Below, one piece after another: positions 35,798-37,791 of a stretch of DNA of 37,791 bases. This stretch comes from an uncultured archaeon (GTDB lineage Archaea; Thermoplasmatota; Poseidoniia; MGIII; CAYLMJ01), in contig CAYSUX010000001.1 in the NCBI GenBank assembly GCA_964434315.1, positions 1 through 37,791 on the forward strand. The letters run 5' to 3'. The position numbers and the translations under genes were made by a program. The stretch's first letter is position 1; every line of letters begins with the position of its first letter. Under the pieces are notes generated by a model, which saw only the letters and a program-made list of their open reading frames with translations, made no database searches and had not been told where the DNA came from.

Positions 35798-36334
35798 TCA
35801 TTTTGAAATACACTCTTTTCTTTTTCTTATAATAATTTTGGTGATGTCAATAATAAATCCACTAAAGAAAACAATTACGATCATTACTATTACTAATAGA
35901 TTATAACTGTGTGGTATTAAAGTCCGATGATAGTTTAGCGTCCTAATCGCGATTAATATGATAACTGCCAATAAATTCATTATTGGACCTATTATACCAT
36001 ATGTTTTATATTTAAAAATTAAACAATTTTTCAAAACTACAATAATCGGCATATATATTATTATTAATGAAATGAATATTAATATAATCTTAACTAAATA
36101 ATTATTTTGTTGAGCGGCAAAAATATTTAAAAATACTGCAAAAATCGGTAATACAAGTATTAATATGAAAGAATATATTGGATAGTTCTCCTGAACATTT
36201 TTTTTAATAAATAATTTTGAAAGATTAATTAATCCTTTTTCAAAACATTTAAGTTCGGGATCATTAGGATCATTAAAATATAACCCGAAGTAACTTGATA
36301 TTGTTTTAGGACTATTACGGTTTACTTGAGTCAT
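35798..36334 (-). CDS. Small, very AT-rich 4-TM membrane protein; candidate immunity protein
   Basis: I start at the ATG at 36334 (MTQVNRN...), 2 nt after the TAA of the upstream ORF. There are four hydrophobic helices: IYSFILILVLPIFAVFLNIFA, IILIFISLIIIYMPIIVVL, IIGPIMNLLAVIILIAI and LLVIVMIVIVFFSGFII. The line 36001-36060 has only 9 G+C out of 60. The stop at 35798-35800 coincides with the AT-to-GC boundary. Confidence 0.6.
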   Translation of the reverse strand: MTQVNRNSPKTISSYFGLYFNDPNDPELKCFEKGLINLSKLFIKKNVQENYPIYSFILILVLPIFAVFLNIFAAQQNNYLVKIILIFISLIIIYMPIIVVLKNCLIFKYKTYGIIGPIMNLLAVIILIAIRTLNYHRTLIPHSYNLLVIVMIVIVFFSGFIIDITKIIIRKRKECISK

Positions 36335-36336
36335 TG

Positions 36337-37791
36337 TTACGTGTATAATATAATACATTCCTCAATTAAGCGGGCTGATGAAATACTTGTAAAAACCAAA
36401 CCAAGAAAGAGGAAACCAGTTTCATAGCCTGTTAATAGTTCCCAACCTTTGTTAATAATGAATTTACCTGCAACCCAGACCCCACTCCCTAATGCAACTG
36501 CACTAAGCCAAATACTCTTCCTCAAAAACGCTTTACGTTCATCTGGATCTTCAGTTCCATCTAAATTTGTTATATAATTCATAGTGTAAAAGAAATTGAA
36601 TGTTGCAAATAATCCCCCGATTAATAATGCTGGTACGAGTGTCATTCTAAATTCCTGTGCCCCTTCTTTATCTGGTTTCCAACCCTTTTTCTCACTTCCG
36701 TAATCTAATAAAAGTTTAACTCCACCAGCCTTAGCAATAGCACTCCCGAATCGAGCTACCATTAAACCAAAACTTGCTGAGAATATTTTTGCAGGATCAT
36801 CATAAAGATTATCGCTTAGCCAATCATTCATAATATCCGAAGTAGTACTTGACAAACTAGCAGCAATAAGAAAATTATTTAAGCTATTCCCTATAGGGAA
36901 TTCTGAAAAATCATCACTAGAAACAGAAGCCGTGCCTACATTTAGAAGACTAAATAAACTATTGTCTTTACCCATAATTCTATCTAAAACAAAATATAGT
37001 CCTTGTTTTGTAATATCACCAATTAGGCTACCAATTGCTGGAAAGCTACTTCCTAAAATGCTTATCATTTGCATTACCAAGGCACCTAAATCAAACAACA
37101 TTGTAAATGGTTCAATTAACTGTATTATATTCATTATTGCCGAAACAACAGGCTTTACACTATTTAATAAGCCACCAAAAATATTAAAAATTCCTAATCC
37201 AGCAGAAATCGTATCATCTACATCACTATGAGAGCTTCTACCACTATCATCGAATTCATTTACTTTGTTGATGAACGTTAACCATAATGAATATAGAGTA
37301 TCAACTACACTTTCAACCAAATTAATTGCGGGTTGAAATATATTATCAATTAACCACTGCACCTGCTCCTTGATCCAATCTACAATCGCGTTGATAACCG
37401 ACATCACGGCATCCACAACCGCCTCCCAAGTATCCGCGGCGGTATCCAAAACCCAATTCAATACTGCCACTGCCGCTCCATCCATATGCCCTTGGAACTC
37501 GCGGTAGTTCTCGTTGATGTCCCAGGCGCGTACCTCGACGTCAAAGCCCAGCGTCGAACCAAACAGGGCGTCCGCAAGGTCGAGGCTGATGCGGGCCTTG
37601 TACTCGCCCGAGGCGGTCCTGGTGGCCACTACCCAGTCGCTGCGGGAGGGGCTTTCCATCCTGATCTGGACCTCGCCCACGCCCGCCGCGCCCTCGACGG
37701 CCCCGGGCTCCGCCCAGGCCACGTCGTAGAGGGCCGGAGCCGAGCCGGGTGGGCCCTCAAGGCGGAAGCTGTAGCGGAGGCGCGGCTGCTG
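36337..37791 (-). CDS. 3' part of a large surface or secreted protein (5' end outside the window) with an AT-rich hydrophobic, glycine-zipper-rich C-terminal domain; candidate polymorphic-toxin C-terminal module
   Basis: The frame is open from the window edge (QQPRLRYSFRLEGPPGSAPALYD-VAWAEPG...), and the track start at 37722 is only a GTG. A GC-rich beta-rich N-terminal part (EVQIRMESPSRSDWVVATRTASGEYKARISL) comes first. Amphipathic helices follow. The AT-rich part has GxxxG-rich hydrophobic stretches (GLGIFNIFGGLLNS, ILGSSFPAIGSLIG, FGLMVARFGSAIAKAGG) and three terminal TM-like helices. Confidence 0.6.
   Translation of the reverse strand, partial: QQPRLRYSFRLEGPPGSAPALYDVAWAEPGAVEGAAGVGEVQIRMESPSRSDWVVATRTASGEYKARISLDLADALFGSTLGFDVEVRAWDINENYREFQGHMDGAAVAVLNWVLDTAADTWEAVVDAVMSVINAIVDWIKEQVQWLIDNIFQPAINLVESVVDTLYSLWLTFINKVNEFDDSGRSSHSDVDDTISAGLGIFNIFGGLLNSVKPVVSAIMNIIQLIEPFTMLFDLGALVMQMISILGSSFPAIGSLIGDITKQGLYFVLDRIMGKDNSLFSLLNVGTASVSSDDFSEFPIGNSLNNFLIAASLSSTTSDIMNDWLSDNLYDDPAKIFSASFGLMVARFGSAIAKAGGVKLLLDYGSEKKGWKPDKEGAQEFRMTLVPALLIGGLFATFNFFYTMNYITNLDGTEDPDERKAFLRKSIWLSAVALGSGVWVAGKFIINKGWELLTGYETGFLFLGLVFTSISSARLIEECIILYT

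Follow-up and report, generated by a model that had tools for sequence, protein, structure and literature searches.

A probable orphan cassette of a polymorphic surface-protein system in an uncultured marine archaeon

At one end of a 37,791-nucleotide (nt) stretch of DNA from an uncultured MGIII archaeon of the Thermoplasmatota (contig CAYSUX010000001.1 of assembly GCA_964434315.1; this whole stretch is referred to below as the window), a long minus-strand open reading frame (ORF) changes abruptly from GC-rich to AT-rich and is followed almost at once by a small gene for a membrane protein. The question that this locus raises is what such an arrangement is for; a sequence-only reading had proposed a polymorphic-toxin module, in which a membrane-active C-terminal domain is tightly coupled to an immunity-like gene. 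Our analysis indicates that positions 35798-37791 very probably hold an "orphan" cassette, truncated at its N-terminus, from a polymorphic system that pairs a variable C-terminal module (CT) with a partner gene; that the pair acts as toxin and immunity protein is considerably less certain.

The junction between the constant and variable parts

The large ORF continues past the window edge at 37791, has 484 visible codons, and terminates at a TAA stop codon at 36337-36339. Its GC content falls from 0.59-0.74 at 37400-37791 to 0.30-0.36 at 36400-37300, drops further to 0.19-0.27 over the small gene, and returns to 0.64-0.73 from 35798 downstream, past that gene. GC content at third codon positions (GC3) is 0.80 in codons 1-139 vs 0.24 in the other 345 codons, with the switch located at approximately 37360; the small partner gene has a GC3 of 0.19, and the neighboring nadA gene one of 0.80. 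The AT-rich block is clearly coding, given that its longest stop-free run of 340 codons lies beyond all of 2000 shuffles (mean 73, maximum 145) and that codon-position GC periodicity within it is clear.

The constant 5′ part of the orphan gene (37375-37791, minus strand) encodes an immunoglobulin-like (Ig-like) beta domain, with the sequence landmarks EVQIRMxSPSRSDW...EVRAWDINEN, and the first part of a junction helix (AVVDAVMSVINAIVDW). It is followed by the CT (36337-37374, minus strand), which spans 345 amino acids (aa) plus the stop codon, is AT-rich and, in structural models, all-helical, and belongs to a family that carries no annotation. The partner gene (35798-36334, minus strand) starts at an ATG at 36334, 2 nt past the stop of the large ORF, and encodes 178 aa with four strong transmembrane (TM) helices; another ATG at 36358 would overlap the large ORF by 22 nt and yield 186 aa, and public gene calls use both starts. 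The partner consists of a basic N-terminus of ~48 aa, the four TM helices (Kyte-Doolittle peaks of 2.4-3.2), and a basic C-terminus. Both structural observations of the sequence-only reading, namely an AT-rich C-terminal domain and an AT-biased, small 4-TM gene beginning 2 nt after the stop, are borne out by these measurements.

We compared the window copy with its relatives at other loci. A word-indexed protein search recovered only the window protein itself and the paralogues P0002 and P0003, and a word-indexed homologue search was run with the family alignment as query (at least two proteins). Locus L004 is the window's own locus with 524 bp further upstream, contig L002 contains two tandem cassettes, and contig L003 contains one. 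Among the window, P0002, L002A, and P0003 copies, the Ig-like domain and junction helix (EVQIRM...EVRAWDINEN...AVVDAVMSVINAIV) share 61-83% protein identity, whereas the C-terminal 345-367 aa share 21-30%; the copies at locus L010 are 87% identical in the constant part and 30% identical in the CT, and the contrast over seven loci is 61-87% vs 21-30%. An invariant C-terminal anchor would be conserved at least as well as the ectodomain that it adjoins, and the CT is instead the far more variable of the two. The survey of relatives proposed by the sequence-only reading, in search of the same constant region joined to different CT/partner pairs, found CTs that are divergent members of one family and partners that are dissimilar (see below).

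The change from constant to variable sequence is localized. DNA identity between the window and the P0002 cassette decreases stepwise from 98-100% to 83%, then to 72-75%, and finally to ~50%, and the break in DNA homology at window positions 37340-37360 coincides with the drop in GC content. Homology between copies ends within the conserved junction helix (...VINAIVxWIKEQVQW), and GC3 collapses at this same point. The difference in GC3 between the constant part and the CT recurs at L002 (0.76 and 0.19), L010 (0.71-0.75 and 0.25-0.27), L015 (0.57 and 0.26), and L007 (0.51 and 0.27, where the host background is 0.90); at L014 the drop is weak (0.47 to 0.44).

Comparison of L004 with L018, a strain variant from another sample, identified 80 differing positions, 75 of which fall in a GC-rich leader of ~210 bp that lies outside the window. 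Within ~1.56 kb, the CT (1023 bp) had no differences and the partner had one substitution; the CT and partner are conserved as a unit and have been under recent purifying selection, as these counts of zero and one between strain variants indicate. The leader differences include non-triplet indels, and the leader, which precedes "QQPRLRY", is probably under no coding constraint. A coding role for this 5′ leader was considered and rejected, owing to the non-triplet indels between strains and to a stop codon in the copy at locus L006.

Giant surface proteins, orphan copies, and partner genes

A hidden Markov model (HMM) of the CT family was searched against 1.84 billion representative proteins, resulting in 75 matches at E < 1e-3, of which 25 were at E < 1e-10. 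Many of these lie at the extreme C-terminus of giant proteins (P0005, 2352 aa; P0032, 2110 aa; P0023, 1522 aa; P0037, 6611 aa), which are composed of an N-terminal signal-like segment, TSP3 or PKD repeats, a last Ig-like domain, and then the CT. The typical full-length size is 1500-2350 aa, with one match of 6611 aa, and hydrophobic N-terminal signal-like segments together with TSP3/PKD repeats were found in P0005, the main gene of L010, and P0023. Judged by these sequences, the CT is the predicted tail of giant archaeal surface proteins, a tail that is conserved in kind and hypervariable in sequence. No homologues of the CT family were found in phage and plasmid collections, and scans of metagenome contigs for relatives and for the leader sequence found none; L004 was the longest extension of the window locus obtained.

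Because the window gene has no giant N-terminus and sets in only at the last Ig-like domain, it is counted among the orphans; orphans are also present beside main genes or in series at other loci. At L010, a 2236-aa main gene is followed by a 202-aa gene, an 879-aa copy without a signal (P0007), and a further small gene; the DNA at 8224-9487 is 83% identical to that at 5020-6286, and this homology stops at the junction, where GC content shifts from ~0.55-0.60 to 0.26-0.36. At locus L014 (GCA_003553355.1), the main gene (1522 aa) is followed by a 2-TM gene of 143 aa and three tiny TM genes; next come an orphan of 273 aa, whose start falls exactly at the junction helix, and a 2-TM gene of 164 aa. 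The genes that come after the main genes of L007 and L016 encode 292 aa and 165 aa, respectively. Three consecutive orphans, each with small 2-TM genes, are found at L015 (GCA_046484045.1), where they lie immediately downstream of a series of four to five toxin-antitoxin pairs of the PIN/RHH type.

Two of these loci have additional features of their own. L015 contains a direct repeat of ~150 bp in seven copies on one strand (620-691, 1458-1626, 2891-3064, 3806-3966, 4740-4985, 7955-8251, and 11721-11841), which includes a TATA-like box, a GGAGG motif, and a "LFAVSSSINQSRPHR..." reading frame and which spaces out both the PIN/RHH toxin-antitoxin pairs and the three CT orphans, so that the array is integron-like. 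This repeat has no supported secondary structure (an attC-like structure is unsupported) and no Rfam match, and no integrase was seen on the contigs examined, which are short. At L007, a low-GC island of ~10 kb (5700-15900; GC 0.31-0.55) in a 110-kb scaffold of ~68% GC is made up of the full-length family gene together with its partner and the beta-propeller gene that follows; suf genes border the island on one side and tusA on the other, and a gene of the archaeosortase type (EpsH) is close by.

The small gene is a regular companion of the CT. A same-strand small ORF follows every one of the 12 complete CTs, within 20 nt in 11 cases, and the majority of the encoded partners have strong TM helices; absence of the small gene beside homologous CTs, which the sequence-only reading had named as an argument against a coupled pair, was not encountered. 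The small genes behind the CTs of close paralogues all differ, and encode a 178-aa 4-TM protein (window), a 261-aa protein with a soluble part between TM segments (TM-soluble-TM), a 230-aa soluble basic protein, and a partial 2-TM protein. Comparison of partners with one another using phmmer and BLAST gave zero pairwise matches, such that only shared architecture can be claimed for them, and the sole database matches of the window's 4-TM partner are to itself at 99-100%.

The polymorphic-cassette architecture is strongly supported by the variable CT behind a constant head, the shared junction with its GC break, the coupled small ORFs, and the orphans. From these sequence comparisons we consider it highly likely that the CT and partner form an exchangeable unit of foreign-like composition that is attached, at the conserved junction helix, to secreted surface proteins of giant size.

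Possible functions of the module and its partner

The best overall explanation of the window locus, to which we assign roughly even chances, is that it is an orphan cassette of a contact-dependent toxin/immunity pair. Full-length genes of the family encode proteins of 1500-2350 aa, predicted to be Sec-exported, with TSP3/PKD repeats, a last Ig-like domain, and a helical, predicted membrane-inserting CT of ~350 aa; truncated extra copies retain nothing of the constant part but its last segment, which would provide a handle for recombination. The orphan would be a reservoir for recombination into a full-length gene. The CT may be a membrane-perturbing effector that the giant surface filament would present, or deliver, when cells touch, and the cognate partner, here the 4-TM protein, may neutralize the matching CT in the producer's own membrane. 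A toxin/immunity function for the CT and partner, taken by itself, stands at even chances or slightly below; it is plausible but unproven, as the CTs are mutually homologous, toxin matches are lacking, and zippers are not enriched.

Several results weigh against this explanation and call for caution. Foldseek searches of two AlphaFold2 (AF2) models against PDB and BFVD found nothing at E < 0.1. The first model, of the window CT (22 sequences), had a predicted local distance difference test (pLDDT) score of 52.6 and was all-helical with a long hairpin at its start; the second, of the canonical CT P0017 (44 sequences), which is 47% identical to the 1522-aa P0023, had a pLDDT of 72.4 and a predicted TM-score (pTM) of 0.60, and was entirely helical with 11 helices. 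With this latter model the best match in PDB had E 0.19, and TM-scores did not exceed 0.24. In the Foldseek searches as a whole, ClyA and SmhB were present among the insignificant matches only. A sequence-profile search of PDB gave an unrelated best match at E 0.24; the Pfam colicin pore-forming and immunity models matched neither the CT nor the partner at E up to 1; and the CT, partner, and relatives had nothing above threshold in Pfam, NCBIfam, or PADLOC. Imm12 (E 0.022), Het-C (E 0.024), and DUF2244 (E 0.0025) appeared below threshold only and were not used as evidence. Given the negative Foldseek and PDB profile searches, membership of the CT in the colicin pore-forming family or another known toxin fold is not supported; possible reasons are a novel fold of the CT and insufficient quality of the models. 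The likeness to pore-forming or colicin toxins that the sequence-only reading had drawn thus finds no match at the level of either sequence or structure.

The more specific sequence features on which that likeness had been built were recovered in part. Amphipathic helices and glycine zippers had been described in the CT; the AF2 models are indeed all helical and Gly-rich strings are present, but zippers are not above shuffled expectation, with two GxxxG motifs vs 2.5 in shuffles and nine small-xxx-small zippers vs 5.3 +/- 2.5, a count reached by 10% of shuffles. The three terminal TM-like helices are likewise present, on the minus strand at 36568-36663 (MTLVPALLIGGLFATFNFF), 36451-36531 (IWLSAVALGSGVWVAGKFI), and 36340-36447 (TGFLFLGLVFTSISSARLI, together with the C-terminus), but are only moderately hydrophobic, with Kyte-Doolittle peaks of 1.75, 1.52, and 1.55, respectively. 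A central, moderately hydrophobic patch of the CT (IIQLIEPFTMLFDLGALVMQMISILGSSFPAIGSLIG; 37009-37161, minus strand; hydropathy peak 1.69) aligns with the most recognizable motif of the family, I-x-P-F ... P, in which the Pro is nearly invariant.

Two further difficulties concern the window copy as a member of a secreted system. A signal peptide is absent from all orphans examined; this absence, together with the unconstrained leader, implies that the window copy may be silent, and it may be either a silent reservoir or expressed from an internal start. In addition, the full-length gene of the window's own genome was not recovered, as the contig ends. Extension of the contig, which had been recommended in the sequence-only reading, yielded the additional 524 bp in L004, and the signals and repeats are those seen in relatives.

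One may postulate an alternative scenario, which we regard as unlikely although it has more to commend it than the others, in which the CT is the stalk and polytopic membrane anchor of a giant adhesin and the product of the small gene assists in its assembly or anchoring. The diversity of the CT would then result from relaxed constraint, horizontal transfer, or viral pressure, with no toxicity involved. The position of the CT at the extreme C-terminus of every full-length member, where it ends in hydrophobic helices, is as expected of a membrane anchor, and the alternative CTs align as one homologous family, whereas textbook polymorphic toxins place unrelated domains on one scaffold. The partners point in the same direction, with ~8 of 12 sharing a single architecture of two TM helices plus a soluble domain of ~90 aa; another two of the 12 depart from this pattern, one being soluble (230 aa) and the other being the window's own with four TM helices, and this heterogeneity also sits uneasily with a toxin/immunity pair. 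The lack of detectable toxin similarity is also consistent with an anchor. Such a scenario explains poorly, however, the truncated orphans that lack a signal but keep a conserved handle, each with its own partner gene, and it is further weakened by the marginal hydrophobicity of the window CT helices and by the toxin-antitoxin pairs that adjoin the L015 cassettes. Moreover, divergence is far faster in the CT than in the exposed Ig domain beside it, the opposite of what virus-driven selection on the surface would produce.

A second alternative, which we judge to be distinctly improbable, is that the CT and partner are a non-killing pair for self/non-self recognition, i.e., polymorphic identity determinants that are to be matched between contacting cells. 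Such a pair could govern adhesion, fusion, or exchange, in the manner of IdsD/IdsE of Proteus or of the role proposed for VARTIG in the Thermococcales. Co-variation of membrane-embedded modules with membrane partners, the orphan copies, and a giant adhesin-like ectodomain suited to cell-cell contact are all compatible with recognition, and VARTIG has a comparable layout, in which a large Ig-domain protein with a hypervariable C-terminus is followed by small TM proteins (PMC8416519). Domain scans, however, revealed no homology to Ids, Tra, or VARTIG components, and the toxin-antitoxin neighborhood is somewhat better explained by a role in conflict. Lastly, the notion that the AT-rich block is foreign DNA in decay or the product of a chimeric assembly, without function and joined to a GC-rich ORF by a chance insertion, draws on the extreme composition jump inside one ORF and on the pseudogene-like downstream flank, but it is effectively refuted by the same junction in independent ENA and JGI assemblies, the stop-free run (340 codons vs a shuffle maximum of 145) and clear codon periodicity, a CT unchanged between strains, and the same architecture at seven loci in several lineages.

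Genomic surroundings, related systems, and implications

The remaining gene content of the window is archaeal (eIF2-alpha, NFACT, MutL, M14/M28/C25 peptidases, and acyl-CoA dehydrogenase), and its overall GC content is ~58%. No tRNA genes or Rfam families that could provide attachment sites were found in the window. Downstream of the cassette, the flank at 34711-35797 (minus strand; GC 64-73%), which separates it from nadA, is a patchwork of duplicated fragments that contains a 63-nt repeat in three copies (D1) and a 53-nt repeat in two copies (D2). Minus-strand GC periodicity of the coding type switches frame along this flank, and HTH-like "RE(I/T)ARQGVSA" peptides occur in it, and the flank looks like a decayed, internally duplicated gene; it has no similarity to proteins of the CT family, and no family was matched. 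The flank also includes element X (~100 bp, 34724-34822), the 3′ end of a minus-strand reading frame, which flanks the cassette on both sides at 83% identity. The second copy of X is at L004 176-271 (~38045-38140 in extrapolated window coordinates), ~3.3 kb from the first, and the two copies suggest tandem duplication or repeated insertion of the unit. AT-rich DNA resumes upstream of the outer copy of X, and another cassette therefore probably lies beyond the window. In a comparison with integron cassettes, the window offers nothing beyond element X and its local repeats, D1 and D2.

The leader at the other side of the cassette, which has 75% GC (L004 311-520), is 98-100% identical to the leader of the different cassette P0002 (L002 3028-3330), and the leader peptides of different orphans weakly resemble each other. 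At L006, an FG-GAP-like gene is preceded by a degenerate leader copy that contains a stop codon; L006 is a contig of 38.7 kb (CAZCVP010000056.1; GC 70-75%) that starts with the archaeal P0002 cassette and belongs to a metagenome-assembled genome labeled "uncultured Enterobacterales bacterium", a placement that is probably a binning error. In appearance the leader is less a coding sequence than a promoter region or a boundary of recombination, and the 5′ boundary of the cassette is at about 37795. Elsewhere in the window, two K/E-rich, coiled-coil-like ORFs without a Pfam match (453 aa on the plus strand and 343 aa on the minus strand) occupy 16451-19020, a lower-GC patch (0.46-0.52) with a strong reversal of AT skew.

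The closest analogues of this locus family by mechanism are bacterial polymorphic toxin loci with orphans, and the closest described archaeal analogue is VARTIG. Polymorphic toxins with orphan modules include CdiA-CT/CdiI, Rhs-CT/RhsI, MafB, and the LXG toxins of the type VII secretion system (T7SS), and the membrane-targeting CTs of bacterial polymorphic toxins are typically paired with polytopic membrane immunity proteins. The loci described here resemble these systems in having a giant secreted repeat protein, a variable C-terminal module past a conserved junction with a small gene directly after it, truncated orphans with a homology handle, and a variable part of lower GC content than the constant part. 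They differ in their archaeal host, in a Sec/TSP3/PKD/Ig scaffold in place of the type V or type VI secretion systems (T5SS, T6SS) or the T7SS, and in CTs that form one helical, TM-containing family with no known toxin or immunity domain.

Bacterial polymorphic toxin systems with orphan CT/immunity cassettes were reportedly treated by Zhang et al. in Biol Direct in 2012. Among the criteria of Zhang/Aravind, we found secreted multidomain relatives, a variable CT with a sharp breakpoint, a small downstream gene, and orphans (L010, L014, and L015); different recognizable toxin domains, by contrast, were not found, as the CTs are one family and match no toxin or immunity model. The polymorphic-toxin-type cassette of the sequence-only reading is supported in its architecture, with a constant head, hypervariable CT, coupled gene, and orphans. 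The helical domain of the pore-forming colicins (A, E1, and Ia) likewise includes a hydrophobic core segment, and the four TM helices and basic termini of the window partner resemble the colicin A immunity protein in topology only; the CT, however, is ~350 aa long with extra C-terminal TM helices, and translocation and receptor domains are absent. In Proteus mirabilis, IdsD/IdsE are identity determinants delivered by the T6SS, for which orphan partner genes also exist. These share with the present loci a polymorphic membrane-embedded region of an exported protein and a polymorphic polytopic membrane partner, and differ in delivery by a T6SS, in their bacterial host, and in the lack of homology.

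In VARTIG loci of the Thermococcales, the gene for a large secreted Ig-domain protein whose C-terminus is hypervariable is followed by small genes that vary and mostly encode TM proteins; the function of these loci is unknown, their authors remarked on a resemblance to polymorphic toxin systems, and no counterpart was reported outside the Thermococcales (PMC8416519). The hypervariable part of VARTIG is the Ig domain of an arCOG07710 protein, whereas here the Ig domain is constant and a helical, TM-containing module is variable; the lineage is also a different one, no sequence relationship exists, and the orphan arrangement is explicit here. Archaeal polymorphic toxin systems have so far been computational predictions without experimental characterization (PMC8416519). 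Among marine group II archaea, which span a GC content of 34.5-62.7%, genes of the thrombospondin type are widespread (PMC6461757).

This locus family provides a clean, testable case in uncultured marine archaea, with a defined junction, main genes as well as orphans, and co-varying membrane partners, and the CT is a new, ~350-aa C-terminal domain family without annotation. We tentatively suggest, at somewhat less than even chances, that these loci represent an undescribed system of contact-dependent antagonism or kin discrimination in planktonic marine archaea, in which giant TSP3/PKD surface filaments would end in exchangeable helical effectors that insert into membranes and belong to a new fold family, accompanied by small membrane immunity proteins of their own and by orphan reservoirs, sometimes beside toxin-antitoxin modules, that would be shuffled at the junction helix. 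Should the CT prove to be an anchor only, giant archaeal adhesins would have in it a new type of anchoring module, and a different account of the orphans would be required. If the CT and partner are toxin/immunity or identity pairs, they would open a route into cell-cell conflict or recognition in abundant planktonic archaea, and would be a source of new membrane-active proteins.

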